Origin: Candidatus Saccharimonadota bacterium
GTDB taxonomy: Archaea; Micrarchaeota; Micrarchaeia; Micrarchaeales; Micrarchaeaceae
Assembly (NCBI GenBank): GCA_963705375.1
Contig: OY970071.1
Coordinates: 1,140,001-1,172,000, forward strand
Reading direction: 5' to 3'
DNA length: 32,000 bases
Shown: piece after piece, positions 4,495 to 28,380 of the stretch
How positions within the stretch are numbered: position 1 is the first letter of the stretch
Layout of the letters: every line of letters starts with the position of its first letter
Notes under the pieces: generated by a model
Seen by the model: only the letters and a program-made list of their open reading frames with translations
Databases searched by the model: none
What the model was told of the DNA's origin: nothing
Position numbers and translations under genes: made by a program

Positions 4495-4627
4495 AATCTC
4501 TCTGAGTTATTTTATGGACTGCCGTCTTTGAATACCTTTGCCTACCGTTATCTATGCATTCGGCCGATAAAAAATTTGTCATTCACGAATTATGGTATGG
4601 CATTATAAGTGTTGCCTTATATGTTTA

Positions 4628-4740
4628 AGCAGCGGACGGCTGGGTTCGGATCCAGTCAATGTCAGGGGAAAGTGGTGAAATTCCACTGCTGTGCCGCAAC
4701 TGTAATCCCATCTTGATGGGTAAGCCAGGCTGCCTGAGTC
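4628..4740 (+). promoter_or_regulatory. candidate cobalamin (B12) riboswitch aptamer
   Basis: The + strand reads aggggaaagtGGTGAAATTCCactgctgtGCCGCAACTGTAAtcccatcttgatgggtaAGCCAGGCTGCC. This contains GGGAA, GGTGAAATTCC, GCCGCAACTGTAA and a shortened B12-box-like AGCCAGG..CTGCC. There is a cccat/atggg hairpin, and gcagc (4630-4634) is complementary to gctgc (4729-4733), a possible P1. The element sits directly 5' of a B12-binding-domain ORF. Confidence 0.7.
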
Positions 4741-4747
4741 CAATGCA

Positions 4748-6712
4748 ATGTCCACGAGCATGGTATGGATGAACGTATCTAAAACTGCTGATTCTTGCTT
4801 GAAAACAGCATACACATCTTCCACTAAAACAGATGTCGACCAAGTCGGAACTCGTTTGGAGTGTGCATGCTGCATGGGAACGGCAAGGGCCGATTCCAGT
4901 TTTGTGCGTTACATATCCGATTTCGTGAATCGCGATTCTTGGGCGATTATAAAAAAGAACATGCCAGATTCCTCCGATGCCGAAATGGCGGAAATAATAA
5001 ACCGTATAAAAACGCTCGACACTATTTTTGCTGGCAACCTGCTTGTAGCCCTTGATGCTACTTCCGATGCAGGTGTGCTTACGAGTGTGAAGTTCCTCAA
5101 CGCTGCAAGCACCTATAATCCGGATATAGGTGATGCTCTTCTGTATGCGATAAGAAGGACAAGCAATGTCGACGCGCTTACCGATTACAGGCTTTTTACA
5201 AGTAATGCAGCTAGCTTCTTCAACAAATCAGGTCCTGAAGCTGCAAGCGAGTGGTTCTATTCTATCGGTCTTACAAGAAACGTTGACGTGCTCACGAGCG
5301 ATCGCGTTTTGAGTGATGCTGTCTTGGCCGTGATAAACAAGGACGGCCGTCTTGCAAGCGAATACTCTCTTGCTGTCGGAGTTACCGGAGACCTGGACGC
5401 ACTTGCGAATACTGGCTTATTGAATTCTCTGAAAGGTCTGAAAGAGCCCCTGCGCGCTGAGGTTCTGTCCGGAGTGTGGTACACAAAAAGTGCAGGATGG
5501 ATAACTCCTGCAGTTGTGGGCAAAATAGGTACTGGAGAGTTGGACGTGTGGAGGGATTTTGCCCGGGCTCCTGCCAACATGGGGCTGCCTCGCGTTGTCT
5601 TCGTGGGCCTCAATGACGGCCATAATCGTGGTTCTAAACTCATCGCGCAGTCCATGCGCGATTCAGGTTTTGATGTTATCTATCTGGATGACGCCTCGTC
5701 CGAAGAAATCGTCCGCATAGCCAAGAAGGAAAGTGTCAGCGCTATAGGCTTCAGCCTGATGGCCGATTCGTACCGTCACACCATGGATGAGGTATTGAGG
5801 CAACTCGGTGCACAATGCGAAAGTGCAGTGACTGTGTTTTGTGGGGGTACTGTCTCACAGCGTACGTCTGATTGGCTGCAACAAGTCGGCGTGCACCTGT
5901 TTGAGAGGGGTACATCCGAGAATGCGCTCATAGGCTTCCTGAAAGGTTCCACGCAGTTGCACCACCCTCCGTTGCCATATGTGCCTGATAATATTGGCCA
6001 GCGTGCTGTTTCGTCCGGCCACCAAACACCATTCAACGCTTATCTGCGCTCAGAGAACGTATTCGGAGCACCGTTTGCATTGTCCGACATTGATGATGAA
6101 CAGAAGAAGACTGAAAAAACGATTGCGCGTGTTGTCGCAATTGATAGGGCGTCTGTGCAAAATGCGCATAAAAATGCTTACAAAGACGCCATGGTCATAG
6201 GTAGTAATGCGATATCTCTGGATATTGTAGTCGCCAGAATGCCAAACTCCCAGGCGATGGTGGTGAAAGCCATGCCAGCTTCTTTGTTTAATGAAGAGTC
6301 CATACTGGCAGCTGCCGCTGCCAATACTGGCGTACACCTCAAAACTGAAGTATACGGTGTCCACGAACAAACCAATATTGTGCATTATGCTGAAGTCAGG
6401 TCTTATACTGGGCCTGGCGCCGTACCGATCTCGATGCAAATGTGCGGTCATGATGCCGGCGCAACTCTGACCACGACGCCGCTCCTCGTGATTCCCTCCT
6501 CGTCGACGTTCAGACTATGTAACAGTCCTCGATATTTGGAACTCGTCAATGTATCTGCATCTGCCCTTCGTGGTGATACGGTATTCGCTGGTCGTACGTT
6601 ACCTGCAATATCTCCATTTATGCCTGCAGCAAAACAGCACCTTGCAAAGAGAAGCCTCAGGATGTCCGAACGCATCATACACATTATCCGAAGGTTCAAG
6701 AGGTTTTCTTGA
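4748..6712 (+). CDS. B12-binding-domain protein with a repeat-containing N-terminal region and an unknown C-terminal half
   Basis: The central segment RVVFVGLNDGHNRGSKLIAQSMRDSGFDVIYLDD...IGFSLMADSY...VFCGGTV matches the methylmalonyl-CoA-mutase-type cobalamin-binding Rossmann domain with the DxHxxG motif. The start is uncertain: 4748 is the longest ORF, and in-frame ATGs at 4874 and 4961 are alternatives. Confidence 0.75.
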   Translation: MSTSMVWMNVSKTADSCLKTAYTSSTKTDVDQVGTRLECACCMGTARADSSFVRYISDFVNRDSWAIIKKNMPDSSDAEMAEIINRIKTLDTIFAGNLLVALDATSDAGVLTSVKFLNAASTYNPDIGDALLYAIRRTSNVDALTDYRLFTSNAASFFNKSGPEAASEWFYSIGLTRNVDVLTSDRVLSDAVLAVINKDGRLASEYSLAVGVTGDLDALANTGLLNSLKGLKEPLRAEVLSGVWYTKSAGWITPAVVGKIGTGELDVWRDFARAPANMGLPRVVFVGLNDGHNRGSKLIAQSMRDSGFDVIYLDDASSEEIVRIAKKESVSAIGFSLMADSYRHTMDEVLRQLGAQCESAVTVFCGGTVSQRTSDWLQQVGVHLFERGTSENALIGFLKGSTQLHHPPLPYVPDNIGQRAVSSGHQTPFNAYLRSENVFGAPFALSDIDDEQKKTEKTIARVVAIDRASVQNAHKNAYKDAMVIGSNAISLDIVVARMPNSQAMVVKAMPASLFNEESILAAAAANTGVHLKTEVYGVHEQTNIVHYAEVRSYTGPGAVPISMQMCGHDAGATLTTTPLLVIPSSSTFRLCNSPRYLELVNVSASALRGDTVFAGRTLPAISPFMPAAKQHLAKRSLRMSERIIHIIRRFKRFS

Positions 6713-13234: not shown

Positions 13235-13307
13235 GCGATTGTAGTCTAGTCTGGTAGGACGTAGCCTTGCCAAGGCTATAACCCGGGTTCAAATCCCGGC
13301 AATCGCA
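13235..13307 (+). tRNA. tRNA-Gly (anticodon GCC)
   Basis: Hand-folded cloverleaf: acceptor gcgattg/caatcgc, D stem gtct/ggac, anticodon stem tagcc/ggcta with loop ttGCCaa, T arm ccggg-ttcaaat-cccgg, discriminator A. CCA is not encoded. A TATA-like cttatatttatta lies about 25-35 bp upstream. Confidence 0.92.
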
Positions 13308-13310
13308 CAT

Positions 13311-13431
13311 GGCGGGGTAGCTCAGCCTGGTTAGAGCGCTAGACTCATATGCAAAAGCACTATGAGTGATGAGCCTTCGGCGATGATGCTAAGAAATCTA
13401 GAGGTCGCGTGTTCAAATCTCGCCCCCGTCA
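13311..13431 (+). tRNA. intron-containing tRNA with CAU anticodon (elongator Met, or Ile2 if modified); intron 13350-13395
   Basis: Fold: acceptor ggcgggg/ccccgtc (one G-U pair), D arm gctc/gagc, anticodon stem ctaga/tctag, loop ctCATa. A 46-nt insertion sits after position 37. The T arm is gcgtg-ttcaaat-ctcgc with one mismatch. G1-C72 argues against an initiator. It starts 3 nt after tRNA-Gly. Confidence 0.88.
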
Positions 13432-13563
13432 TATATTGAAGAAGTTCAAATCCCGACCCATAGGGATTTATGTAGTTTTTCGTTACGTTATCGTTACACA
13501 GCAATATTTTCAAGAATGCCAGACCCTCAAAAGAGCAGTATTTGATTATCAGGTGTTTGTGAC

Positions 13564-13929
13564 TCATCGGCCCTTGTAACCTAATATTCTATCGTACTTT
13601 TTATGATCGACTAAGTAGAGCACAATCGCAACCACCTCAATCTCATTTCCTTTCAAGGTGTATAGCATACGCCAGAAATGAGTTAACTCCAGCCTGAATA
13701 GGTTGTTCACGTCTAATATTTTAGGTATCAGGCGTTTTGGTATGTTGTCACCGAGCATAGCATTCTGTTTTAGCAGCTCTATCCTCTGTAGTATGGATCT
13801 CAATAGTTGCATTTCTTCTGAATTACTTACACCTTTGGACCGTTGAATCCCAACGATTCTGTTAAGTCCTTCGAACTCTTCTTTGGCTTGCTCTATTAGC
13901 ACCACTCTTACGGGTCTTGCATCGTTCAT
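13564..13929 (-). CDS. RelE/ParE-like toxin candidate with an N-terminal extension (121 aa)
   Basis: The C-terminal LFRLELTHFWRMLYTLKGNEIEVVAIVLYLVDHKKY resembles the RelE/ParE core pattern (..R.R.G.yRviY......i.il.i.hR..vY). It has a 4-nt ATGA overlap with the upstream small wHTH gene. Confidence 0.55.
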   Translation of the reverse strand: MNDARPVRVVLIEQAKEEFEGLNRIVGIQRSKGVSNSEEMQLLRSILQRIELLKQNAMLGDNIPKRLIPKILDVNNLFRLELTHFWRMLYTLKGNEIEVVAIVLYLVDHKKYDRILGYKGR

Positions 13930-14201
13930 ACCTCCAACCCATGTTCTATAATCTTTTCAAGTTCTTCATGAGGTTTGTATATCCAGAGCACTCCCTTAGT
14001 TGTTATGAGTATCTTGCCGCTCTGTTGTAAGTAGTCCAGTATCTGCAGCAGCGTACTGTGCATAATCTTCTTAGGTAGCCTACGCTTTAGCTCGGATATC
14101 TTTATTACCTCTCCTGCTTTCCGTAGAGTATCTTCGACCATGAGCACTGTAGCAAGCCGGGGGGAATGCATAACCTCTACTTGGACTGTTTGAAGCTTCA
14201 T
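13926..14201 (-). CDS. winged-helix DNA-binding protein, putative antitoxin/regulator (91 aa)
   Basis: ISELKRRLPKKIMHSTLLQILDYLQQSGKILITTKGVLWI has a wHTH pattern. It is translationally coupled to the RelE-like ORF, and a strong A/T-rich promoter region (atatatatactaataagatatataaatatat) lies upstream. Confidence 0.55.
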   Translation of the reverse strand: MKLQTVQVEVMHSPRLATVLMVEDTLRKAGEVIKISELKRRLPKKIMHSTLLQILDYLQQSGKILITTKGVLWIYKPHEELEKIIEHGLEV

Positions 14202-14328
14202 AATAATATATATACTAATAAGATATATAAATATATCTTTTAAGTATCAATCGCATCGCATACAACAGAGCCAGTTGATTAAGCCTTTGTATTTTTAGAA
14301 TAGTTAGCCATCTTTCCATAACAAAAAA

Positions 14329-14373
14329 GGATCGTTCAGCAACTGCAACGTAGTATACTCTGCCACCCCGTCA
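14329..14373 (+). repeat. diverged copy of the att-like repeat ending ...ctgccaccccgtca
   Basis: It shares ggatc, agtat, ctgcc and the terminal ccccgtca, in the same order, with the 58-bp repeats at 15238 and 16214. I estimate roughly 60-65 percent identity with gaps, by eye. Confidence 0.4.
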
Positions 14374-14512
14374 CACATACATCATGTTCAAATACAGAAC
14401 CATAAGCCACAGATACGAGTTACTTAGCTACCTCTTATGCTTGGTCCTCTAGATAACCTATCCGCCAGTTCGCAGAATCACTCCATGCAAACCTGGGCAG
14501 AAGACAAAGAGG

Positions 14513-15085
14513 TCATTCTTCTGTTCTTAATGCTTCAGCAATTTTAGGTGCGGCCATTTTGAAGTCAATTGGAACCCCAACCACCACAGGGGCAACATCC
14601 AGAGGTTCGTTGAACTTCGCATCGAGGTTGAAACGACCTCCAAAATGGGTATTGAGGTCCGCAAGTACCTCCAGCGACAGCGGATTATTTCCTGGAGAAG
14701 CAAAAACTGTCTTTTCAATGCCGCCATCCCCTTCTACCTGCTTGCCATTTTCGAAAGTAATATAAAGTTCTAACTCAGGATTATAAGCAAAAACTATATT
14801 TTTCTCGCCCTTGTCTTTGACGAGCTTGCCTTCATTATCAAAAATATGATATCCTTCTTCCTTAAGACCTTTTCCGGCTAGCCAGAACCATTTTTCCTTC
14901 AATTGCCCCATTAGCCCAGGGTTTCTGTCTATGAGTACAAGTGCTTCCTGATAAGTCATGGCTCTTAGGTGCTTTTGCTGCAAAAGAGCCATAGAATCTG
15001 TGTAATTTGCCTCTGTCTCGGATATGAATACTTCTGTATTGCTTACTTTCTTAAACTGCACTTCAGTCCTTTGTCTAGCAGACAT
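14513..15085 (-). CDS. hypothetical protein (190 aa)
   Basis: It is a long ORF with balanced composition, and the overlapping ORFs are short. I recognise no motif. Confidence 0.6.
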   Translation of the reverse strand: MSARQRTEVQFKKVSNTEVFISETEANYTDSMALLQQKHLRAMTYQEALVLIDRNPGLMGQLKEKWFWLAGKGLKEEGYHIFDNEGKLVKDKGEKNIVFAYNPELELYITFENGKQVEGDGGIEKTVFASPGNNPLSLEVLADLNTHFGGRFNLDAKFNEPLDVAPVVVGVPIDFKMAAPKIAEALRTEE

Positions 15086-15237
15086 TTTAACACATTGTCG
15101 TCTCTATTTATTCAAATACTTATGCTTTCTTTTTGTGTTGTTTGCGAAAGTTTGTTGGAGTGTAAGTAAACTTTCTCTCCTTTCGCCCAGCACTTTTAGA
15201 AGTTGCAAAGTTGCAAGCATGAAGAAATTACCAATCA

Positions 15238-15295
15238 ATAACGAATCAGTAGCCCTTCCGCCAACACAATTCAAGTATGACTGCCGCCCCCGTCA
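15238..15295 (+). repeat. 58-bp att-like direct repeat, copy A (ends cgcccccgtca, identical to the tRNA-Met 3' end)
   Basis: ataacgaatcagtagcccttccgccaacacaattcaagtatgactgccgcccccgtca matches copy B at 55/58. The last 11 nt are identical to tRNA-Met 13421-13431. Confidence 0.8.
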
Positions 15296-15371
15296 GACCT
15301 TCAAACAACGTTAGACAGTAGTATCTTTGCGCAATAGTTAAAAATCCCGAATATCTATTGACTATGATACT

Positions 15372-16154
15372 ATGTGGTCTGCCGAAAGGCTCTGTATTAA
15401 TGCGGAACAGTGGTATGCCCTATTTCTTGAGGCACGCTCAGAAGACGGAGTAAAAGAAGCGGAGTTCATCAAAATTCAAATCAGAAAGCATATGAAAACC
15501 GCTAAGCGAGTGCTTGATGTACCGTGCGGTACGGGCAGAGTGTCTATCCCACTGGCCAAAATGGGTTTTGATGTTACAGGAATCGATATTTCAAAGAACT
15601 ATATCGCTATCGCAAACAAAAAGGCAAAAATGAACAACGTAGGAAAACGAGTAAAATTCATCCAAGGGAACATGAGAAATGTCGAAGAAATTTGCAGTCC
15701 CCTCGAAAGATTCGATGCGTGTGCAAACGTATTTACAAGCATAGGATACGGGACTAAAGAAGAAGACATCACATTCTTTAAATCACTCAGAAAAATAACG
15801 AAAAGAGGAGGTTTGTTCTTTATTCTGGCAACTCAGAATAAAAATGCATTAACTCCACAAAAACCTTACGAAGGCTTGGAGCGGGTCGGAAACATTGTGC
15901 TCATAGATGCGGCACATTTCGATAAAAAGACCTCACATCGCACATCTAATTGGCGATTTTACAAAGATAACGGCAAAACATTGAAACTACTCTATGCGCA
16001 AAAATTTGACGTTCTGCTTTATTCCGCTCAGGAAGTTGGAACTATGCTGGAAAAATCTGGCTGGAAAGTGATAAGTGTATTTAATGCCGATAAAAAGAGG
16101 CTGCCATTAACTAAATTTGACCGTAGATTTAACATAGTGGCAAAAGCAGTATAG
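15372..16154 (+). CDS. class I SAM-dependent methyltransferase
   Basis: VLDVPCGTGRVSIPLAKMGFDVTGIDIS covers motif I plus the acidic post-I residue. Downstream motifs FDACANVFTSIGY and GGLFFI are present. Confidence 0.85.
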   Translation: MWSAERLCINAEQWYALFLEARSEDGVKEAEFIKIQIRKHMKTAKRVLDVPCGTGRVSIPLAKMGFDVTGIDISKNYIAIANKKAKMNNVGKRVKFIQGNMRNVEEICSPLERFDACANVFTSIGYGTKEEDITFFKSLRKITKRGGLFFILATQNKNALTPQKPYEGLERVGNIVLIDAAHFDKKTSHRTSNWRFYKDNGKTLKLLYAQKFDVLLYSAQEVGTMLEKSGWKVISVFNADKKRLPLTKFDRRFNIVAKAV

Positions 16155-16213
16155 AGTATAGGTATGCTTAGTTATCACTGTACTGAAATTCAATCATTAA
16201 GAAATAACAAATG

Positions 16214-16271
16214 ATAACGGATCAGTGGCCCTTTCGCCAACACAATTCAAGTATGACTGCCGCCCCCGTCA
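16214..16271 (+). repeat. 58-bp att-like direct repeat, copy B
   Basis: ataacggatcagtggccctttcgccaacacaattcaagtatgactgccgcccccgtca matches copy A at 55/58. Confidence 0.8.
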
Positions 16272-16335
16272 TTACTAGACTTCTGTCGCCGAGAGACATT
16301 CCAGCAAGAAAAGGTTTGTCGTCGGAAAAAGTGTC

Positions 16336-17088
16336 GTGTTCAAACCACCACCCAAAACCTATGTAATACTGTTGATAAACTTGGTAAAAATTCTGGACTT
16401 AAATATCTGGAACTACGAAGATTTCGCAGAGCGGAAGCCAAAAATAATTAAGCTTATAAAAAAACAGAATCCAGACCTTGTAACCCTACAAGAAGTAAGG
16501 GATGATAGAAAATTTAACAAAAAGGGAAAAGATTAGGCAGAGCAATTAAACGAAAAATTACATTATCCTTATTGCATATTTTACCCTATTCAGAACCTAC
16601 AAAAGATATCGAGAACACCAGAAAAATATAAATTGGGGGCTTTTGAGGGATTGGCAGTATTGTCAAAATATCCTATTATAAAAGTAATAAAAAGAAGATT
16701 AAAAAGGCAGAAGGCGGATAGACATCCGCGTGGAATATTGCATTTAAAGATAAAAGTCAATAAGATATTCGACATAATAATTGTGCATTTCTCGAACAAT
16801 AATATATTTAGCTTGCCTCAACTGCGTGAAACGTTAGATTATGTAAAAAAGAGACAAATTGAACCGATAATTATTGGTGATTTCAATATATTAGAACCAC
16901 AACAAGTATCTAGATTAGCAAAAAGCAAGTACAAAAGTTCCTATACCCATAAACGATACATTTCCTATCCGAGCAAAAAAGAAGTTTTGGATTATATACT
17001 GATTTCTAAAAATCTCAAATTTGAATCTTTTAAGTGTCTAAAAGAAAATGTTTCAGATCACAAAGCATTAATCGCATCTATAATATAA
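16336..17088 (+). pseudogene. endonuclease/exonuclease/phosphatase (EEP) family gene interrupted by one in-frame TAG
   Basis: ORFs 16336..16536 and 16633..17088 are in the same frame and separated only by TAG at 16534-16536. The read-through translation is continuous and EEP-like: KILDLNIWNY...PDLVTLQEV...GKD*AEQLNEKL...FEGLAVLSKYPI...IIGDFN...VSDHKAL. The likely original start is TTG 16381. The segment is visibly more AT-rich than its flanks. Confidence 0.8.
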
Positions 17089-17110
17089 ATGTAAATCTTG
17101 TCGTGAAGAC

Positions 17111-17128
17111 CAAATCTCTCCCCCGTCA
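17111..17128 (+). repeat. 18-bp copy of the tRNA-Met 3' end (putative distal att site)
   Basis: caaatctctcccccgtca matches tRNA-Met 13414-13431 caaatctcgcccccgtca at 17/18. Confidence 0.7.
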
Positions 17129-20043: not shown

Positions 20044-20400
20044 TCACATGATCAAGAGCTTCAGGCCCTCTACTTCTTCAAAGTCTTTATCCCGCGTCAC
20101 TAGCAGCTCGTCGTGAGCTATTGCTATGGCTGCTATAAGGATGTCAAGCTCGTTTATCATACGCCCTTTCTTTTTCAACTCCTTGAATATTTTTGCAGAC
20201 CTTCCGGCAGAAACGCTGTCAAAAGCGTACACATTCATGATGTCCAAACTCCCAAGCGCTTCGTTACTTTTTGGAGCTTTTAAAAGTTCATACTCTGTTA
20301 TCGTCGTAGTTGCGATTTGCTCTCCTATTATCTCCAATTTCTCTTGTACGGCTGTGTTGTTGCCTAGCACTTCTATCAGAATACTAGTGTCCAATATCAT
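20044..20400 (-). CDS. vapC: PIN-domain ribonuclease toxin (VapC-like)
   Basis: MILDTSILIE is an N-terminal acidic PIN motif. ...ELDILIAAIAIAHDELLVTRDKDFE carries the C-terminal PIN acidic residues. It has a 4-nt overlap with the upstream antitoxin. Confidence 0.85.
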   Translation of the reverse strand: MILDTSILIEVLGNNTAVQEKLEIIGEQIATTTITEYELLKAPKSNEALGSLDIMNVYAFDSVSAGRSAKIFKELKKKGRMINELDILIAAIAIAHDELLVTRDKDFEEVEGLKLLIM

Positions 20401-20627
20401 GCAAAATACCTGTGTTTGCTGCTTTTTCTGGCTGCCGTTATCTCCTTCGAGAAGGCTTTGGCATCCTCCTTGCTCCAGACTCCCATAAATTTCCTGAGCT
20501 CCTTAACGTCTCCTTTGGTGCCTGCTCGCACTATGAGCTCCTTTATCTCCTCAGAGAACGACTTGTTCTTCTTCATCCGCTTCAGCGTCGAATAGACCTC
20601 ATTGGTAAGGGAAACTATTTTTGTCAT
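20397..20627 (-). CDS. vapB: VapB-like antitoxin (76 aa from ATG 20627)
   Basis: MTKIVSLTNEVYSTLKRMKKNKSFSEEIKELI resembles the archaeal small antitoxin pattern paired with PIN toxins. An atatata-rich promoter lies immediately upstream. The longer track ORF (to 20699) adds an implausible N-terminus. Confidence 0.7.
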   Translation of the reverse strand: MTKIVSLTNEVYSTLKRMKKNKSFSEEIKELIVRAGTKGDVKELRKFMGVWSKEDAKAFSKEITAARKSSKHRYFA

Positions 20628-20785
20628 GATATATGTATATGTATGCATATATAAAAGGCTTATTGGTATACCTAAATCGTCTAACATGAACCAGCACACG
20701 TTCTATTTCTATATTGATATGCCATGTATGAAAATGTTTAAATAACTATACATTCATATACTTAAGTACAAGTATAGGTAGTTGA

Positions 20786-21157
20786 ATGGATAGCCCAATC
20801 TTCGAAGCGCATCGGTTGCTGACGCTTGCAAGGTACATAACGGTGCCTCTCTTTATTCTTATGTTGTTCTCAAAGAGCACATATGCGGCGTCGCAGCTTG
20901 TTACGGAACTTGACAACATAAAGCTTATACTCGTCCAGGTGGGGCCTGCGCTCAGCGCGGTGCTGTTCGTGCTTGCTGGCATCTTCTATGCGATAGGCCA
21001 GATGCTGCCCCCTGATAAGAAGGCCAACTTCCACACGGCCGCGATAAACATAATAATAGGTGCAATCGTGGTCGGCGCTTTGAGTGTTGCGTCTACCTCG
21101 CTGGCCATCGCATCCACCCAGCTTTTGAGCAACTTCACAGTTACGAACTCTGTCTGA
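20786..21157 (+). CDS. VirB2/TrbC-like (CedA1/TedC-like) pilin candidate: signal peptide plus two hydrophobic helices
   Basis: The 123-aa protein has an N-terminal signal-like segment ending KSTYA-AS. Helix 1 is LILVQVGPALSAVLFVLAGIFYAIG, followed by a short polar loop QMLPPDKKANFH and helix 2 AINIIIGAIVVGALSVASTSLAIA. It is the first gene of the ATPase-containing cluster. The function is inferred from topology and context only. Confidence 0.55.
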   Translation: MDSPIFEAHRLLTLARYITVPLFILMLFSKSTYAASQLVTELDNIKLILVQVGPALSAVLFVLAGIFYAIGQMLPPDKKANFHTAAINIIIGAIVVGALSVASTSLAIASTQLLSNFTVTNSV

Positions 21158-21158
21158 G

Positions 21159-22196
21159 GTGAATGTGGTGCTTGCAGATATCGGCGCTTACAATATTGCG
21201 ATAGACCTTGTCGCAATAATGCTTGCCATATCTGGCATCGTCTTGGGCATCGGCTTTGCCGCAGACGACAAGAGGTTGAAAGAGTTCGGAAGGTCCGAGC
21301 TGCAGCAGGCTTTGATAAACGGTGCAATTGTGGGAATGCTGATCTCTGGATTTAGCAGCAATGGACTGATTGCTTTGCTCATCAACAACATTACTTCTAG
21401 TATGCAACTGACGGCAACATGCCAAAGCTTCATGAGTAGCAATTATGCTCTGTGCTTTGCGTACAACTACCTTGTTGGGACCAGTCCGGTGAGCATAAAT
21501 GGCATCGCATATCTTCCGCTTATAGAAACCGCTTTCGGCACACTTGCGGGTACCGTCTCGGTATATGTGGGTCTTGGTCTCATAGGTGCGGTTAAGCTCG
21601 GCAGCGGGCTTGTCGGCGTAAGCCTTGCAGGCATGATGGATCCTATATTGAATCAGCTTGGATATGTGATCGGGGCTCTCGGAGCATCGATAATAAGCAT
21701 CGAGGCCCAGGGAATTCTGCTCAAATTCATCTCTCTTACCGCGGTGCAGATACTGCTTCCTGTAGGAATAATACTTCGCATCACGTACATCACAAGAAGG
21801 ATAGGTGGCGCAATCATGGCTATCGCAATCGGACTATTTGCCGTGCTGCCACTGACATACGTATTAAACGCCGAGCTTGTCGCTGGCTATGCCGGAGCTC
21901 TCAATGATACTGCGGTAAGCACATTTGAACTCAATACGAGCAGGATCGCAAACGGAATGATGGGCAGCACGGCGAATCTCAATACGACCAATGGTGCAAG
22001 CATCTCTTCCATTTTCAGCGGTGCGATGGCTTCGCTTGAGAACATAGCCAAACAACTGCTGAACATCATTGCACAGATAGTCATACAGGTGTTCTTTCTG
22101 CCCGTGTTCGGGCTGATACTCACCGCAATCTCGATAAGGGAACTTGCGAGGGTTCTGGGCTCTGAGGTGAGCTTCGGAAGGTTCTACATGCTGTGA
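21159..22196 (+). CDS. polytopic membrane protein (about 7-8 TM), VirB6/TrbL/CedA-like by position and topology
   Basis: The 345-aa protein has many G/A/I/L-rich helices and a polar N/T/S-rich loop (residues around 235-285). It starts 1 nt after the pilin-like gene. I see no diagnostic motif. Confidence 0.5.
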   Translation: MNVVLADIGAYNIAIDLVAIMLAISGIVLGIGFAADDKRLKEFGRSELQQALINGAIVGMLISGFSSNGLIALLINNITSSMQLTATCQSFMSSNYALCFAYNYLVGTSPVSINGIAYLPLIETAFGTLAGTVSVYVGLGLIGAVKLGSGLVGVSLAGMMDPILNQLGYVIGALGASIISIEAQGILLKFISLTAVQILLPVGIILRITYITRRIGGAIMAIAIGLFAVLPLTYVLNAELVAGYAGALNDTAVSTFELNTSRIANGMMGSTANLNTTNGASISSIFSGAMASLENIAKQLLNIIAQIVIQVFFLPVFGLILTAISIRELARVLGSEVSFGRFYML

Positions 22197-22200
22197 TCAT

Positions 22201-22932
22201 ATGGAGGACTGGACGTTCGTAACGCTGCTTGTGCTCGAAGTAATGGTCACAATCGCAAGCATTGCTACGCTGAATAGGCTGCTCATAGCGGCAAGCCTGA
22301 CTGCAATACTTGCAACAGCGCTGCTTTACAGGCTCTGGTATGTCATAGAAGCGATCATGTTCAAGCACACGCACTTAGTGGAGCTGTTCAACGGGTACGA
22401 GCTGAGCGGTGCAAGAGAAACGGCGGTACGTAAGCGCAACGGCGCATTCAGTGCGACAGCGGCAGCCTTGCTCACCACAAACGCAAAGCGCGGCATGGAA
22501 CTTGAGCGGCTTGAGAGCATCATACAGCAGACTAGAGCACCTTTCAAGTTCGTGCTTCAAGCAGAACGGCTGAGTGCAAAGAGGCTTCTCGATGCAATGC
22601 AGACCAAGGTGAGCATGAAGCGCCTGGAGATGTCAAAGCTCAGCACTTCCTCTGAGAAGAAGCACATCGCGAAGCTCGATGCTCTGAAAAGGGAGATAAC
22701 GGAACTTGAGAAAGAGATAGAAACCGTAAGTGCGAGCGCACCTATGAGGCTCCGTCATTACATAATGACAAGTGCGCTTTCGGAAAACAAATTCACAGCA
22801 TCGGAGCTAGCGCTTTCGCAGCTAAATGAGCTTTCAAGCAAGTTGGGTGCCTTTCTTGGTGCAGAACCCGCGCTTCTTTCAGGTACTGAACTCATCACAG
22901 TCTTAGAACTCGACTCGACGCTGGTAGAATGA
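22201..22932 (+). CDS. membrane-anchored coiled-coil protein (2 N-terminal TM), possible VirB3 / VirB4 N-terminal-domain equivalent
   Basis: The N-terminus FVTLLVLEVMVTIASIATL...AASLTAILATALLYRLWYVI forms two TMs. A K/E/L-rich coiled coil follows (KLDALKREITELEKEIE). It has a 4-nt ATGA overlap with the downstream VirB4-like ATPase. Confidence 0.55.
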   Translation: MEDWTFVTLLVLEVMVTIASIATLNRLLIAASLTAILATALLYRLWYVIEAIMFKHTHLVELFNGYELSGARETAVRKRNGAFSATAAALLTTNAKRGMELERLESIIQQTRAPFKFVLQAERLSAKRLLDAMQTKVSMKRLEMSKLSTSSEKKHIAKLDALKREITELEKEIETVSASAPMRLRHYIMTSALSENKFTASELALSQLNELSSKLGAFLGAEPALLSGTELITVLELDSTLVE

Positions 22933-24026
22933 AAACCGGAATCAATTCCAATGCAAAGTATGCAAGCACGATGATGTGCATGGATGGCATGTCGGAACCT
23001 TCGCTAGAAGATGATTCTGGGGTCTATCTGGGCAAGACGCGCGTGTATCATACGCCGTTCTTCTTGGATACAAGCAAGCTATTGAATCCACATATCGCGG
23101 TGCTCGGCATGTCTGGTGCCGGCAAGACGTATTTCCTTAAGAGCCTTATAGCAAGGAATGCGCTGTGCTGCAACACTAAAGTTCTGGTGCTCGACTGGAA
23201 CGGAGAGTACAGCAATTTGATATCATTTCTTGGAGGGACCGTGTTTGATTCGGCAGTTGTGCCTCCATCTTTCGGTACCATCTCTTCAAGGCAGATTGCC
23301 AGCATAGATCTGTCAGTGCAGAAGAACGATACCGAAAGGAAACTCACTGCGGCACAGCTCCTTGACATGTTGATCGACGGGATGCATAGCCTGCGATTAG
23401 AGAAAGATCTCGGCCGCATAGTGGTGCTCGATGAGGCATGGCGTTTCATCGAGAGTGCAGGCGATATCGGTGCACTGTTTAGGGAGGGCAGAAAGTACGG
23501 AATAGGGATAGTCACCGCCACACAACTTACAAGCGACGTAAGCAAGGAGGTTCTCTCGAATGCCGCATGCACCGTACTCTTCAGATTGCAGAACAGCACA
23601 GATTACTCATTTCTACTAGATGCTGAGATAATCGACGAATTCGAGAAGCAGCGCATTTTGCAACTGAACCAAGGTGCGTGCATGCTTTCCATGGCTATGA
23701 AAGAAAAAAGTGGCCATGTGCGATTTTTCATAGAGCGCATAGACGGCGTTGACACCAAGCTTTACGGTATACGATGTGATGCGATGTATTTGAGAATAGC
23801 AGGATATGAGTTCCAGAAGATCACCGAAAGGCATTTTGCTGGTTCAGACGTACGACAGAAGATAGAGAGCTATATGGGCATCAATGACCGGGAGCTTGAA
23901 GCGACTGCCTTTGTAAAGTTCCTGTTAAAGATCGGATTGCACAGACAAGAGATAGTGCCTTATCTCAGAGCGCTGCGCATAAGCGACGCCATGATCGCAG
24001 AGGTGTACGAGCGTGCAGGACAATAG
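22929..24026 (+). CDS. VirB4/TrbE/CedB-type ATPase domain (FtsK-HerA superfamily)
   Basis: Walker A is GMSGAGKT (nt 23106-23129). Walker B is IVVLDEAWRF, the DEAW form typical of VirB4. GRKYGIGIVTATQ is the RK...TQ motif. At 365 aa it is only about the C-terminal half of a canonical VirB4. Confidence 0.8.
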   Translation: MKTGINSNAKYASTMMCMDGMSEPSLEDDSGVYLGKTRVYHTPFFLDTSKLLNPHIAVLGMSGAGKTYFLKSLIARNALCCNTKVLVLDWNGEYSNLISFLGGTVFDSAVVPPSFGTISSRQIASIDLSVQKNDTERKLTAAQLLDMLIDGMHSLRLEKDLGRIVVLDEAWRFIESAGDIGALFREGRKYGIGIVTATQLTSDVSKEVLSNAACTVLFRLQNSTDYSFLLDAEIIDEFEKQRILQLNQGACMLSMAMKEKSGHVRFFIERIDGVDTKLYGIRCDAMYLRIAGYEFQKITERHFAGSDVRQKIESYMGINDRELEATAFVKFLLKIGLHRQEIVPYLRALRISDAMIAEVYERAGQ

Positions 24027-24657
24027 ACGGTTGCTGTGTTCTTGTTTTCACGTGCATGCACGTTTAGTTTCTAGTCTGGCAGAAGCGGGAAATGCGCTAA
24101 ACTCTTTCCGATGCCTTAAACTGTGCTCTTCAGGAACTAGGCGCGTGTATGTGATTGTCGAGGCGGCAAAGAGAGACCATGAGGCTCTTTTAGAGCTATG
24201 CCGGGATTCGATATCTCTCAAGTTCTTTTTCGCGAAACCAGACCGAAGAGAATACACCGATAATTTGCTTAAGTTTCTCTCCATTCTTGCTTATCTCAAG
24301 GCATTCTATTCTGTAGACTTTGTTGAAGTATATCCTTACATCGTAGAAGCTCTGCACAACGGCTGGTCATTCTCTGTCCTCGATGATCAGTCCATTGATG
24401 ATGTACTGAGCCAGCGTATAGTCGCATTGAGCGGCATAAATGTGACACTCTCGCGAGAGCTCGTCATTCTCTCAAGAGAAAAGAAGATGCTGAATGAGAA
24501 AGCACGGACTTACAGAAGGTTCTGTGCCGAAGTATTAGAGAATGCGCGCTCCATGACCCGAACTGGAGATGCCGGACAGCACGCCGCACTGTATTCTCTT
24601 GGAGTGGGCGATGCTGAAATAAGCGCAGTTGCCTCGTTACTGGCTGAAAAAGAGTGA
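24013..24657 (+). CDS. hypothetical soluble protein of the cluster (214 aa)
   Basis: It is a same-strand ORF overlapping both neighbours (GTG start inside the end of the ATPase gene). No motif recognised. Confidence 0.55.
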   Translation: MQDNRRLLCSCFHVHARLVSSLAEAGNALNSFRCLKLCSSGTRRVYVIVEAAKRDHEALLELCRDSISLKFFFAKPDRREYTDNLLKFLSILAYLKAFYSVDFVEVYPYIVEALHNGWSFSVLDDQSIDDVLSQRIVALSGINVTLSRELVILSREKKMLNEKARTYRRFCAEVLENARSMTRTGDAGQHAALYSLGVGDAEISAVASLLAEKE

Positions 24658-25639
24658 TGTATTGATTGATACTTCTACCAGATTTTTGGCGTGCACAATT
24701 CTGTCGTTGGCTTTCTTAGCACTCCTATTGCACATTTCCGCTGCAGATACGTGCAAAGTGCTTTGCTTGCAAAAAGTCGGAATTAGCGGAAACCATATCG
24801 TTGCGTATGTGCACTACGATGGTTCTGTTCTACACAGTAGACTCGTTGAGGTCGTGCTAAACGATAGATACTTCGCAAGCATTTCAACTAACTATAGTGG
24901 CGTACTGAGCGTGTATGCGCCCTTCTCTTTGGGCAGGAATATGGTGTCCATTGAATATGCTGGAAGCGTTGCAGAGTATCCTATATATTATTTCGGCAAC
25001 TATCTCAGTCTTGCGCTCCTGCCGATCGGGATTGCGTTCTATTTCTCCATCAAACTCATCTCTGAACACATTACCTCAAACAAAGAGGTGATGATTGTCT
25101 TTGACTGCGAGCACGGCGAGTGTCACAATTCGCTAGACAAGAGGCTAATTCAGGATACTGCTGTGCAGTTGTACAAGCGGAACGCCCGCATGCGCATGGT
25201 GAAGGCATTGCCTGTAAGCGTTAACGAGATATCTGCTGCTTTGCACGAGCACTTGGGCTGTCCGAGTCCAATCAACAATGATGAATTCATAGGATCTGTT
25301 TGCGCAGATGTATATCTGGGCGTGCTTTGTAGGAGTGCGATGCCGTATCGTGAAATAGCTGCGAAAAGAATTTACGAGACTGCAATCAACACGGGATCCT
25401 ATGCATTGAAGGACGGCATGTCTGTGTCCTCTTTCTTAAAATCAAATTGCGTCATACACTTCATCGAGATGCATTCCGGCTTGAAGCGCGGGCTGTACGG
25501 TTCAAATCACATATGCATAGCTGTCTCTACGTGCAGCGAGAAGAAAGAGGTTCAGGCCCTTCTTGCAAGGTGCTCCGGCGCATGTGCGTTCATGCTATTC
25601 AACGAGCTCAACGGATTCATGAGTGTGATAGGGTGCTGA
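24629..25639 (+). CDS. bitopic/2-TM membrane protein with a beta-rich ectodomain and a Cys-containing cytoplasmic domain (336 aa)
   Basis: TM1 is FLACTILSLAFLALLLHISAA and TM2 is LSLALLPIGIAFYFSIKLI, with a beta-strand-like segment between them. The TTG start is from the track and is uncertain. Confidence 0.6.
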   Translation: MPRYWLKKSDVLIDTSTRFLACTILSLAFLALLLHISAADTCKVLCLQKVGISGNHIVAYVHYDGSVLHSRLVEVVLNDRYFASISTNYSGVLSVYAPFSLGRNMVSIEYAGSVAEYPIYYFGNYLSLALLPIGIAFYFSIKLISEHITSNKEVMIVFDCEHGECHNSLDKRLIQDTAVQLYKRNARMRMVKALPVSVNEISAALHEHLGCPSPINNDEFIGSVCADVYLGVLCRSAMPYREIAAKRIYETAINTGSYALKDGMSVSSFLKSNCVIHFIEMHSGLKRGLYGSNHICIAVSTCSEKKEVQALLARCSGACAFMLFNELNGFMSVIGC

Positions 25640-25818
25640 TCGAAAGATACTTTGCCAGAATAGGGCTTGCAATATGCCTTGCCATATTGAACATAGGTTC
25701 GCTTCTCATGCTGTTTGGAAATAGCCGCGAGGATTCCGGAATGCGCAAGGTCGGAACAGATGCCGTTGTGGGTGCGCTGCTCCTGGCTTTCATTTCTTTT
25801 ATTGTGTACTTTTGGTGA
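25633..25818 (+). CDS. small 2-TM protein (61 aa) from GTG overlapping the upstream stop
   Basis: VLIERYFARIGLAICLAILNIGSLLMLFG...DAVVGALLLAFISFIVYFW forms two hydrophobic helices. GTG 25633 overlaps TGA 25637-25639 of the preceding gene. The part of track ORF 25447..25818 upstream of this is R/H/C-rich and implausible. Confidence 0.45.
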   Translation: MLIERYFARIGLAICLAILNIGSLLMLFGNSREDSGMRKVGTDAVVGALLLAFISFIVYFW

Positions 25819-25861
25819 TTGCACGTTCAAAAACATAAAGAGCTTCTATCGTAGTGCCAAC

Positions 25862-26110
25862 ATGTATGAGGCACTTTTTGCCTCTTTTGTAGGCGCATTT
25901 GCGATATTTGCCGCACTTCTCGGCATCGAGAAAGCGATGGCTCCATTGTATGCTTTGAATCCCGTTACAATTTACCTGGCACTGCCTGCCGGATTCTGCA
26001 TAGTCTTTGCATACGTTGTCAAGCGTAGAGTCGACATGCCAAGAACCCTTAGGCTAGGGCTTCTTTCTGGTATGCTTCTTTCCCTTGTGCTGATATGCGT
26101 GATCCTGTGA
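25862..26110 (+). CDS. small 3-TM membrane protein (82 aa)
   Basis: MYEALFASFVGAFAIFAALLG...IYLALPAGFCIVFAYVV...LGLLSGMLLSLVLICVIL. Its end overlaps the start of the 761-aa ATPase by 16 nt. Confidence 0.5.
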   Translation: MYEALFASFVGAFAIFAALLGIEKAMAPLYALNPVTIYLALPAGFCIVFAYVVKRRVDMPRTLRLGLLSGMLLSLVLICVIL

Positions 26111-28380
26111 ATGTGAGATTTGATGCATTTAGGGTAACTGCATTGCCAAATAAGGAACCGGACAAAGTATCCTTCTTTGAAATCATCGGAAGGAATGCAT
26201 TTCTGCTTTTGTACGATCTTAGTCAGAAAACCACCTTCTTGTGCATCGATGCGAGCATCTCCGAAAAGAAGGTGAAGGACATACGCCAGTCAATACCTGG
26301 AATCGGATTTGAAAGAACAGAGTGCGCGGTGTTTAACGCAACCATGAGCCTGAAGGTATTGTCGTGCTACAAGAGGCCTGAGCGGATAGAGGAGTCGGAC
26401 GAGCATCACATGCACGACATATTTGATCTTGCCCTTGGCGATGGGTTTGTTGCAGTGGCTTTCCTGCCCGCAAGCGAGAAGGAGCTAGAACGGGCAAAAT
26501 CTTACGTGGAACGGACACTGAGCAGGAAAGAAGTCAGGGAAACGCGCTCTGCCGTGACTGAGATATTCAGCAAGAAATCCAGTTCATCAACACAGCGAGA
26601 TCTGTTCATGGAATCGGAAGAGACTGCATTACTTAACAGCATGTTGAGCTCAATAAACAATGCAATACTGGGCAATAGCCTAGCATACAAACAGTTTTTC
26701 ATCATACCAAAGGAATGCACGGAGTTGCAAGAGTATCTTTCAACAAGATTTATGCTGCTTAACGAATCCGAATGCAACTCTAGTCTTGCAGAGAAACTGG
26801 CGGAGCTTTTTAGCGCGCGAGCATTCCCTCTAGGCACAGATTACCTGAATAACTTCGTGAATTTCTATGGCGCTTACAAACTCAACTATGTTCTGCCCAC
26901 CATCTCGCAAAGCACGAAAAAGGGCATAGCGATAGGCACATTCATGAAGAATGGCGTTGCAGAAACAAATCATGTCGTAAGGATAGAGCAGTCGACAATG
27001 AACCTTGGTTTTATAATAACGGGTTTGCCTGGCAGCGGCAAGACCAAGGAGGCGATGGCAATAATAGATGCTGTGAAGGCTAGCAATAATTGCACACGGA
27101 TCCTTGTAATCGCGCCCACCAACGAATGGGATGGCTTTGCCATTGCGCATGGTATGCATCTGATAAGGCCTTACGTGGACAAGATCCCGATCAATCTCTT
27201 TCGATGCCCTCCGAAAGCGCAGAGGGAAAAATTCTATGAGAACCTTGCCCTTGTACTTGCAAGCGCATCTAATGCAGGACCGTACCAGAACCCTCTGGAA
27301 CAATGCCTGCTGAACGCGTTCAGGAGAATCTACTCAGAAACAGATACTCCAAATCCAATTAACGTGTATGCTGCAATAGAGGACTCGATAATACGGTTCC
27401 ATGCAAAGAAGACAAATGCGGGCATAACGTACACCAAACACGGCGAAAACATAAGATCTGCATTGGAAAATCTACGTGCAATCCTCAGCAAACCAGAATA
27501 CGCTGTGAGTGAAGGTGTACTGATTGAGGAACTTTCAGAGAAAGGAATAATTTTCGATGTATCTGGCGTGAGCAGTGGGAAGAGGGCGTATCTATATGCG
27601 CTGCTGCTGAATCAGATATACGCGATTGCTGCAGAGTTTGACACTGACGGCGATGATGCGCTCAGGCTTCTCATATGCCTTGAGGAGGCACAGACCGTCT
27701 TAGGCAACAAGGAATCGGCAGCAATACAAGACCTTAGGCAACGCATACAGGATTTCCGGAAACAAGGCATAGGGCTCATGCTTCTTGCGCACAACATCAG
27801 CGACATAGAGCAAAGCGTGCGTAGACTCTGTCAGATAAAGCTGTATCTAAAACAGGCACCGGATGTTGCTGCGGTTGCGGCGAAAGACCTCATATTCACG
27901 TATGCCTGCGAAGACGATGTCGTGCTCAAACTAAAGCTCTTGGACTCCCGAATAGGTGCTTTCAGCTACGTTCTGAAAGACAATGGAGAAAAGCTGGCCC
28001 AAGACACGACGTTCATAAGGACCGTAGACTATTCCGACAAATCGAGCTTTCACATCAACGCATTGGATGCCTATGTCCAAAAGAGAGGTCTACGCGTGCC
28101 TGCTGTCATCAACGCAAAATTCAGCATCTTTCTAGACATTGTTGGCGAAGCAAGCAAACTGCAACAGAACACACACTATATGCGATTCAAAAATCTTGGC
28201 GAGGAGCTTTTCATACACACAATAAGCGGTTCCTGCACAATAATGCAAGAACTCATAGAAGGGTCCGAGTACACTATTCAACTCCTAGACAGAAAAGAGC
28301 GCACAATCTGCGAATTCAGGATAAAAGCGTGCCCTGCAATAAACCTGCACATCCGTGCGGAGTCGATAGATATTCTTTAG
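26095..28380 (+). CDS. large HerA/VirD4(TraG)-like P-loop ATPase (FtsK-HerA superfamily), 761 aa
   Basis: Walker A is GLPGSGKTKEAM. Walker B is RLLICLEEAQ, the EEA(H/Q) form seen in HerA/DUF87-type proteins. FRKQGIGLMLLAHNISD follows. The N-terminal roughly 300 aa and C-terminal roughly 180 aa are unrecognised. Confidence 0.8.
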   Translation: MRDPVNVRFDAFRVTALPNKEPDKVSFFEIIGRNAFLLLYDLSQKTTFLCIDASISEKKVKDIRQSIPGIGFERTECAVFNATMSLKVLSCYKRPERIEESDEHHMHDIFDLALGDGFVAVAFLPASEKELERAKSYVERTLSRKEVRETRSAVTEIFSKKSSSSTQRDLFMESEETALLNSMLSSINNAILGNSLAYKQFFIIPKECTELQEYLSTRFMLLNESECNSSLAEKLAELFSARAFPLGTDYLNNFVNFYGAYKLNYVLPTISQSTKKGIAIGTFMKNGVAETNHVVRIEQSTMNLGFIITGLPGSGKTKEAMAIIDAVKASNNCTRILVIAPTNEWDGFAIAHGMHLIRPYVDKIPINLFRCPPKAQREKFYENLALVLASASNAGPYQNPLEQCLLNAFRRIYSETDTPNPINVYAAIEDSIIRFHAKKTNAGITYTKHGENIRSALENLRAILSKPEYAVSEGVLIEELSEKGIIFDVSGVSSGKRAYLYALLLNQIYAIAAEFDTDGDDALRLLICLEEAQTVLGNKESAAIQDLRQRIQDFRKQGIGLMLLAHNISDIEQSVRRLCQIKLYLKQAPDVAAVAAKDLIFTYACEDDVVLKLKLLDSRIGAFSYVLKDNGEKLAQDTTFIRTVDYSDKSSFHINALDAYVQKRGLRVPAVINAKFSIFLDIVGEASKLQQNTHYMRFKNLGEELFIHTISGSCTIMQELIEGSEYTIQLLDRKERTICEFRIKACPAINLHIRAESIDIL

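Follow-up and report, generated by a model that had tools for sequence, protein, structure and literature searches.

Tandem integrase-less modules bounded by repeats of a tRNA-Met 3' end in Micrarchaeota

Elements with tyrosine recombinases that occupy tRNA or tmRNA genes in tandem have been described in archaea (PMC8371274, PMC6563490) and in the ssrA islands of Dehalococcoides (PMC3146451). Cis-mobilizable elements (CIMEs) and accretion at att sites have been reported for streptococcal integrative and conjugative elements and integrative and mobilizable elements (PMC5704250, PMC7563491), and gene capture by "suicidal" integrases of the Sulfolobus spindle-shaped virus (SSV) type has been described in Sulfolobus and Thermococcales (PMC7253208). 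Here we describe an islet in 32 kb of Micrarchaeota (DPANN) DNA (this whole stretch is hereafter called the window, and coordinates are relative to it), in which four small modules (M1-M4), none of them carrying an integrase gene, follow a tRNA-Met gene in tandem and are bounded by repeats of its 3' end.

The general kind of locus is known, namely the tandem reuse of a tRNA gene by tyrosine-recombinase elements. As in those systems, a single tRNA gene 3' end is reused, direct repeats lie between elements and the cargo consists of defence and accessory genes, and the course of events that we propose likewise includes regeneration of the tRNA by element sequence and loss of the integrase after integration. 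In contrast to them, the present units are much smaller, at 0.7-2.3 kb with one or two genes each, the core is only 11 nt long, no integrase trace was detected by tblastn in the loci of 17 of the 19 delimited modules, and arrays with conserved, family-specific ends recur across many species of a DPANN lineage. CIMEs resemble M1-M4 in being flanked by att sites, in having no integrase or transfer genes and in standing in tandem at a tRNA-linked site. They are thought to be mobilised by an integrase in trans, which is also what we propose here, but they are bacterial, usually single and several kb long, whereas the arrays described below are archaeal and comprise up to four or five units in series. 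Integrons share with these arrays the addition at one fixed proximal site, units of about 1 kb that each end in a conserved site, frequent toxin-antitoxin (TA) cassettes, and junction repeats that are alike within an array (121 nt at 89% identity in the relative L094). Unlike integrons, the arrays have no folded attC and no adjacent IntI, are anchored at a tRNA 3' end, carry cargo on both strands with its own promoters, and are associated with a phage-type tyrosine integrase located by tRNAs. In SSV-type capture, archaeal elements also enter tRNA genes and the trapped genes are flanked by tRNA-derived repeats; SSV-type integrases, however, are split by insertion and their halves lie at the borders, whereas the integrase in relatives of the window is intact beside attL. 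It is the combination of tiny integrase-less units, family-specific ends, up to four or five units in series and DPANN-wide recurrence that is unusual, and we found no description of such arrays in the searchable literature.

Repeats of the tRNA-Met 3' end in the window and across Micrarchaeota

The tRNA-Met(CAT) gene at 13311-13431 (+ strand; Rfam RF00005, 52.6 bits) is the putative integration target (attB/attL). It holds a 46-nt intron at about 13350-13395, which Rfam aligns as an archaeal-type insertion of 48 nt 3' of the anticodon. Because of this intron the gene was missed by ARAGORN, which called only the tRNA-Gly(GCC) that lies directly upstream and is given as context (13235-13307, + strand; Rfam 70.7 bits). 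Direct reading and motif counts identified the last 11 nt of the tRNA-Met, CGCCCCCGTCA (core A, 13421-13431, + strand), as the unit that recurs downstream. Specifically, the 11-mer is found exactly at 15285-15295 (core C) and 16261-16271 (core D), where it closes each copy of a direct repeat that measures 70 nt at 89% identity, or 58 nt at 95%, and the last 18 nt of the gene (13414-13431) are found again with one mismatch at 17111-17128 (junction E). A further junction (B) has a core ending at 14373 that keeps only CCCCGTCA of the 11-mer. Four copies of the 11-mer with at most one mismatch are present in the 32 kb, always on the + strand, against an expectation of 0.21, and none of 100 shuffled sequences reached four; the 8-mer CCCCGTCA is present in five places on the + strand, in every case at one of the five proposed junctions, and once on the - strand. 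The junctions are spaced 942, 922, 976 and 857 bp apart. All five therefore lie on one strand, as direct repeats of the tRNA 3' end that bound inserted DNA in tRNA orientation. An earlier reading of the window made from its letters alone (the sequence-only reading) had listed the 18-nt recurrence, the exact 11-nt copies, their common orientation and their spacings, and all of its coordinates hold; the diverged copy that it placed at 14373 is now supported by a 19-nt match in the downstream flank and by homology upstream to a right arm of L094.

When the terminal 21 nt of the tRNA were searched for in a single genome of each species, 12 loci were obtained, all of them from metagenome-assembled genomes (MAGs) of Candidatus Micrarchaeota/Micrarchaeaceae, and the same scan of metagenome contigs added 12 loci, mostly from peat and bog, so that a homologous tRNA-Met is present in 24 Micrarchaeota loci. 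Copies were counted in the 21 non-redundant loci other than the window, within 113 kb of related sequence; these loci are blocks of limited extent, and their array lengths are thus minimum values. Twelve extra 11-mers were found downstream of the tRNA-Met on the tRNA strand (69.9 kb; expected 0.24), and none upstream or on the other strand of the same loci (expected 0.54). Measured from the tRNA-Met end, and always on the tRNA strand, they lie at +1434, +3200, +4117 and +5245 in L007, at +862, +1630 and +2342 in L021, and singly at +1828 in L002, +1149 in L004, +681 in L005, +767 in L008 and +2333 in L019. Repeats of the tRNA 3' end that bound inserts in tRNA orientation are present in eight of the 21 counted loci and also in L094. 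Two junctions delimit each of 19 modules (17 in seven loci and the window, two in L094), which measure 0.7-2.3 kb and carry toxin-antitoxin pairs, methyltransferases and similar genes. Since it recurs among the 21 loci, the array is a lineage-wide property of the tRNA-Met gene and not a quirk of one assembly. The genes upstream of the tRNA-Met vary by lineage (HycI-like, NUDIX and others), and none of them is a recombinase.

Empty sites, conserved module ends and an integrase in relatives

An empty and an occupied site can be compared directly in L002 and L007, which are 98.7% identical over guaA and its leader. The guaA sequence, whose identity was confirmed by Pfam, directly follows the tRNA in L002, and in L007 a four-module array of 5,245 bp lies exactly between the two. 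In addition, guaA lies between the tRNA-proximal junction and a second junction of arm and core in both genomes (+0 to +1828 in L002, +5245 to +7070 in L007); of the two cores at this second junction, that of L002 is exact and that of L007 degenerate (CGCTACCATCA), and the genomes diverge past it. From this layout guaA itself appears to be enclosed by att junctions.

The copies also follow the sequence of the host tRNA. L094 was found through a toxin 95% identical to that of the window, and the two loci share 81.8% identity over the HycI-tRNA flank. The tRNA-Met of L094 has CCCCGCCA (GCCA) at its end, and both cores of its array read CGCCCCCGCCA, also with GCCA, whereas in the window GTCA stands in the tRNA and in every copy; the repeat thus tracks the end of the host tRNA. 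The TA cargo, which is the second module in L094, is 92.7% identical between the two, compared with 81.8% for the adjacent chromosomal flank. Different first modules stand in otherwise matching contexts in L019 and L021, which have an identical tRNA and an identical start of a VapBC module: the first module of L019 is 2333 bp long and carries asparagine-synthase-like and diphthamide-synthase-like genes, and that of L021 is 862 bp long. The VapBC module is second in these two loci and comes first after the tRNA in L008, L011, L015 and L016 (the last a near-duplicate of L011), and a RelE-type module takes the first place in L005 and the third in L021.

Module ends are conserved around variable cargo. 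The type-1 right arm consists of AGCCCTTCCGYCA, five variable positions (N5), ATTCA, about 10 nt and the core, and is found twice in the window, three times in L021 and in L005. A hidden Markov model (HMM) of this arm built from the other loci only recovered 15239-15295 (E 2.9e-5) and 16215-16271 (E 1.5e-4) and nothing else significant in the window. A second arm family occurs in L007, L019, L004 and L002, and a third in L094; the type-2 HMM, also built without the window, did not detect junction B. The first modules of L007 and L019 have 82 nt of left end (94% identity) and 41 nt of right end (93%) in common around unrelated interiors of 1434 and 2333 bp, respectively. Similarly, a 121-nt junction repeat (89%) separates unrelated cargos of about 1 kb in L094, and its left part of 37 nt is also found 3' of the tRNA in L094 and in L014. 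Of 37 distinct junctions, 16 have a GTTCAA box past the core, as against 3.2% of controls (P 9e-15); the box is at position +12/13, or at +28-31 where a 17-nt palindrome is interposed.

This palindrome, TCGACGTGaCACGTCGA, was observed between core and box in L002, L007, L008, L010 and L023, all of one tRNA subgroup; it lies within the first 20 nt past the core and moves the box from +12 to about +29. In L008 the unit closes with a decayed repeat of the tRNA 3' end, 23 nt long, and may represent a mini-module devoid of cargo.

A candidate enzyme is encoded at the same site in relatives. In L018, an open reading frame (ORF) of 402 aa starts 45 nt past the tRNA-Met end and has a Pfam Phage_integrase match (66.7 bits) and a C-terminal zinc ribbon; its product is a tyrosine recombinase. 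Homologues of about 400 aa number more than 1000; where their source is named, it is Micrarchaeota, Micrarchaeum, Micrarchaeales or Marsarchaeota, and the R, HxxR and Y residues are invariant among the aligned homologues (alignment A1). The integrase genes start about 45-65 nt past tRNA genes; in L026-L032 these tRNAs bear introns and the distance is about 65 nt. The linked tRNA is tRNA-Met in L026, one with anticodon TGC in L027-L029 and one with anticodon TGT in L030-L032. The window retains the beginning of such an element. Positions 13392-13494 match L018 from -39 to +64 (BLASTN, 80.6% over 108 nt), and the 64 nt at 13432-13495 align with the left end of integrase elements with a local score of 21, the maximum in 1404 controls being 14. 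This homology takes in the TATA region and the first codons of the integrase, and the integrase gene itself is gone from the window. The left end of L026, GTTCAAATCCTCATACCATAGG, matches the boxes of the window past the tRNA and past junction B.

In L018 and L026-L032, the integrase is always followed by an ORF of about 200-220 aa at a conserved position and with no Pfam match, which could encode a directionality or accessory factor. Beyond this ORF lies defence cargo, either restriction-modification genes or an HSP70-like/AAA block; the L026 contig stops right past the ORF and has AbiEii genes on the opposite side of the tRNA. From their sequences, and with no Pfam confirmation, we take the genes 3' of the L018 integrase to be PD-(D/E)XK-like, Vsr-like and Dcm-like. 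Viral contigs were scanned as well. No matches were obtained there for the 24-nt repeat core, for the terminal 21-mer of the tRNA or for the pattern of the type-1 arm; a looser pattern of core plus box had 48, none with an integrase or arms, and these were treated as chance. Provirus integrases on viral contigs were only 24-39% identical and gave no attP information.

Proposed mechanism and competing explanations

We lean towards reading the islet as the product of serial integrase-mediated insertion at the tRNA-Met, with modules that are mini-elements mobilisable in trans and that are partly fossilised in the window. The four integrase-less, att-bounded modules would stem from repeated site-specific recombination at the tRNA-Met 3' end, with CGCCCCCGTCA as the recombination core and an incoming element that carries right arm, CGCCCCCGTCA and left end in this order. 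Everything to the right of the crossover, which we infer to lie near the 5' edge of the core, would be element-derived, and the tRNA would thereby be rebuilt. Because the tRNA sequence right of the crossover would come from the element, the element would have to carry the last 11 nt exactly, which would explain why tRNA identity stops sharply at 11 nt in type-1 and type-2 arms. Each new insertion would take place at the live tRNA end, and older modules would be pushed distally and decay. A module would comprise a left end (often with the GTTCAA box about 12 nt past the core), one or two cargo genes, a right arm of 45-70 nt and the core. The enzyme would be a member of the Micrarchaeota-wide family of tyrosine integrases of about 400 aa with a zinc ribbon, and since it is absent from the window it would act in trans or have been lost. 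Most modules would thus be non-autonomous mini-elements comparable to bacterial cis-mobilizable elements, inserted and excised by an integrase supplied from elsewhere. In favour of mobile mini-elements we count ends conserved at about 90%, boundaries at the same position and sizes clustered at 0.7-2.3 kb, together with the TA cargo that is more similar than the backbone; conserved ends with variable cargo and alternative first modules in identical contexts lend indirect support to mobilisation in trans. Within the window, cores C and D are intact and have family-typical arms, and B and E are decayed. The sequence-only reading had offered serial cassette capture or decay of tandem integrations: integration is upheld, and of the two courses the window bears signs of both.

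Several results weigh against serial insertion of mobile mini-elements. No recombinase was found in the window by Pfam among 27 non-overlapped ORFs of at least 110 aa and nine shorter ones, and tblastn with the L018 integrase also gave no match there, as the sequence-only reading had stated. No full-length integrase element was seen with both ends, which leaves no direct tie between the right arms and the integrase. Nor did the evidence include any circular or excised form. For the window's own flank (17129 onward) no relative was found in which the tRNA joins the flank directly, so that the search for empty sites proposed by the sequence-only reading succeeded for L002 versus L007 and not for the window; in the closest relatives, L013 and L014, the tRNA is followed by a contig end or by different genes. 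Module 1 has a clear deletion and fusion. In one pair, the divergence of the VapBC module is close to that of the flank (83% versus 81%), which fits vertical inheritance, and module order is conserved across loci (VapBC, then RelE), for which precise deletions and tRNA-proximal insertions would suffice without any shuffling of cassettes.

A rival explanation is decay only, which we consider possible although on balance doubtful. Under this explanation the modules would be remnants of full-size integrase elements (5-10 kb or more) that were never mobile as small units, and TA pairs would survive by resisting loss. The left end of module 1, which keeps the promoter and start region of a deleted integrase gene, is what such decay would leave behind, as are junction B without about 47 nt of the L094-type arm, the degenerate junction E and exonuclease-endonuclease-phosphatase (EEP) gene, and the 190-aa gene without the partner that it has in L033. 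Loss of integrases and tandem arrays are moreover documented for archaeal elements (PMC8371274, PMC6563490), and the conserved order of VapBC and RelE and the flank-like VapBC divergence count here as well. On the other hand, when the L018 integrase was used as a tblastn query against the loci containing 17 of the 19 delimited modules, nothing matched at E <= 0.1, which argues against simple recent decay; that search did not extend to the two modules of L094, whose cargo ORFs had no recombinase match in Pfam. Decay would also need deletion end points that are repeatedly identical, as in the 37-nt left end at three L094 junctions and in L014 and in the 121-nt repeat. It leaves unexplained both ends being 92-94% conserved around unrelated interiors, the clustering of sizes at 0.7-2.3 kb, and alternative first modules between otherwise identical flanks. 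A bolder extension of serial insertion would be an integron-like cassette platform anchored at the tRNA, in which self-contained cassettes of about 1 kb, each made up of left end, cargo, a right arm of about 50-70 nt and the core, are captured serially and excised or exchanged at the last 11 nt of the tRNA-Met by an integrase encoded elsewhere. We put this forward tentatively and think it rather unlikely; if true, it would amount to a dedicated trade in TA and defence (possibly metabolic) genes among symbionts with reduced genomes.

A classical integron, or a cluster of attC sites lacking integron-integrases (CALIN), with folded attC cassettes and an IntI-type integrase, was rejected and seems to us scarcely credible. 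The resemblance lies in mostly single-function units of about 1 kb, TA cassettes and a repeated site of about 60 nt at module ends, and integrons have been reported in archaeal MAGs (PMC9668308), in a study that mentions neither Micrarchaeota nor tRNA. However, the arms fold as single-stranded DNA no better than shuffled sequences (z-scores of 0.04 to -1.85), the repeats have no attC-type bulged hairpin and no inverted-repeat architecture, the GTTRRRY boundary is absent, cargo genes are found on either strand, a tRNA 3' end defines the site, and none of about 25 loci has an adjacent IntI. It is very improbable, in turn, that the repeats are not integration scars at all and represent a dispersed repeat (a miniature inverted-repeat transposable element, a tRNA-derived short interspersed element or an IS200/IS605-type palindrome-associated transposable element), a terminator or regulatory motif, or chance. 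The 17-nt palindrome past some junctions does resemble the subterminal hairpins of IS200/IS605 elements, but the junctions of the window have neither the palindrome nor, consequently, any subterminal hairpin, Pfam found no TnpA or TnpB in the window, and the core is 11 nt long and not a tetra- or pentanucleotide; IS200/IS605 or palindrome-associated elements were therefore rejected. Within the 113 kb of related sequence, copies lie only downstream of the tRNA-Met and on its strand; they co-vary with the end of the tRNA and are oriented like the tRNA, not like the cargo genes, and motif counts in the window and in the 21 loci exclude chance. The relatives do not show the same gene order without the repeats, nor are the repeats dispersed elements with no relation to tRNA ends. 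The view of the sequence-only reading that these are scars of integration at a tRNA 3' end is strongly supported by the recurrence at this tRNA only, the L002/L007 pair, the co-variation, the integrase in relatives and the left end of module 1. As for SSV-type integrase halves, tblastn detected no fragment in the window or the arrays with a query that was the phage-type L018 integrase and not an SSV-type one. In favour of a dispersed element, an ORF 5 kb downstream in L005 is presumably TnpB-like, a label taken from its N-terminal sequence only and not from a scan.

The genomes of DPANN archaea are very small, the organisms depend on hosts, and little is known of their gene gain and loss. One tRNA end here is a recurrent, lineage-wide entry point for small accessory packages, in at least 10 independent assemblies. 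If the units are indeed mobilised in trans, they would represent a second, structurally different route to integron-like arrays, based on a double-stranded, tRNA-derived core and not on a folded attC. Even on the conservative reading there is a large uncharacterised family of tRNA-targeting integrases with more than 1000 members, and the tRNA-Met plus the 11-mer offers a practical marker for the flexible genome of Micrarchaeota. The arrays would also explain assembly breaks at the tRNA-Met. We observed that the L013 contig (CAISDH010000007.1) stops exactly at the tRNA-Met 3' end and that the L094 contig (contig_85544, 34 kb) stops inside the array, breaks that are consistent with strain-level heterogeneity at this position.

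Modules of the window and neighbouring features

Module 1 begins with the integrase-element left end at 13432-13495 (+ strand), in which a GTTCAAATCC box (13444-13453) and a TATA-like stretch accompany the first codons of the lost integrase gene. Its cargo lies on the - strand. A toxin of 121 aa (13564-13929) is ParE/YoeB-like according to a weak Pfam match (ParE_like, E 1e-3) and has 210 homologues at E <= 1e-8, the best 120 of which are 48-95% identical. The start of the toxin gene is overlapped by the gene of a 91-aa antitoxin partner (13926-14201), a putative winged helix-turn-helix protein identified as an ORF, with homologues in L004 (module 1) and L094 in the same pair layout. The pair announced by the sequence-only reading is thus a TA pair, in which the toxin is refined from RelE-like to ParE/YoeB-like and the winged helix-turn-helix partner stays putative. 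The module ends at 14303-14373 (+ strand) with a decayed right arm, which can be aligned to that of the TA module in L094 except for about 47 nt that it lacks, and the degenerate core B, CCACCCCGTCA (14363-14373). Downstream of this core, a 19-nt match in register with the post-tRNA flank scores 13, a value reached by one of 2548 controls. Judging from these features, module 1 is an integrase-element left end fused to an older TA module.

In module 2, the left-end box GTTCAAATACAGAACCATA (14386-14404, + strand; repeat D4) lies 12 nt past core B, in register with GTTCAAATCCCGACCCATA, which itself lies 12 nt past the tRNA end. Its cargo is a 190-aa protein of unknown function (14513-15085, - strand) that, in keeping with its earlier description as an orphan, has no Pfam match and only 12 homologues. 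In L033 the homologue is the second gene of a two-gene operon, the first gene of which (153 aa) is absent from the window module, and no att junctions were found in that context. A paralogue of 166 aa (P0124), 46% identical, is encoded elsewhere on the window's contig of 1,209,602 bp. The type-1 right arm and exact core C close the module at 15226-15295 (+ strand; direct repeat D1; HMM match 15239-15295).

Module 3 carries a class I S-adenosylmethionine-dependent methyltransferase of 260 aa (15372-16154, + strand), a solid assignment by Pfam (Methyltransf_25, E 1.2e-17, and others) that bears out the sequence-only reading, and ends with the type-1 right arm and exact core D at 16202-16271 (+ strand; direct repeat D1; HMM match 16215-16271). 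In the left part of module 4 there is a T-loop-like box, GTTCAAACCACCACCC, at 16338-16358 (+ strand; repeat D2), followed by the EEP gene at 16381-17088 (+ strand), which is recognised by Pfam (Exo_endo_phos) on both halves and by its translation. The gene has a single reading frame with one in-frame TAG at 16537-16539, by which it is predicted to be inactivated, and its G+C of 0.31-0.33, compared with 0.45-0.50 in the flanks, makes it the AT-richest part of the region; the AT-rich pseudogene proposed at this place is thereby borne out. The distal junction E at 17101-17128 (+ strand; repeat D11) is a decayed copy of about the last 28 nt of the tRNA, tcgtgaagaccaaatctctcccccgtca, and G+C rises to 0.50 directly beyond it. 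Considering the fusion in module 1, the degenerate junctions B and E and the stop codon in the EEP gene, the array of the window is partly fossilised.

The T stem of the window's tRNA-Met contains a U52.U62 mismatch, and the acceptor stem contains a G2.U71 wobble. Position 71 is C in the close relative L094 (tRNA end at reverse-complement position 8801), and the T-stem mismatch, which is common to the whole gtcgcgtg subgroup, might be a scar of the replacement of the 3' end by element-borne sequence.

Further downstream, a VapBC pair at 20044-20639 (- strand) is followed by a conjugation-like block, the whole region extending to 28380. The VapC is homologous to that of a tRNA-Met array module in other MAGs, with no att core beside it. 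The block includes a 123-aa ORF resembling a type IV secretion system pilin (20786-21157), a VirB4/HerA-like ATPase (22929-24026; DUF87, AAA_10, TraG P-loop) and a 761-aa P-loop protein (26095-28380), and 20044-28380 may be an integrated conjugative element in a DPANN genome of 1.2 Mb. On the other side of the islet, a cobalamin riboswitch at 4620-4754 (+ strand; RF00174, 41.6 bits versus a gathering threshold of 31.5) lies directly upstream of an ORF at 4748-6712 that encodes a protein of 654 aa with a B12-binding domain; riboswitches are rarely reported in archaea.

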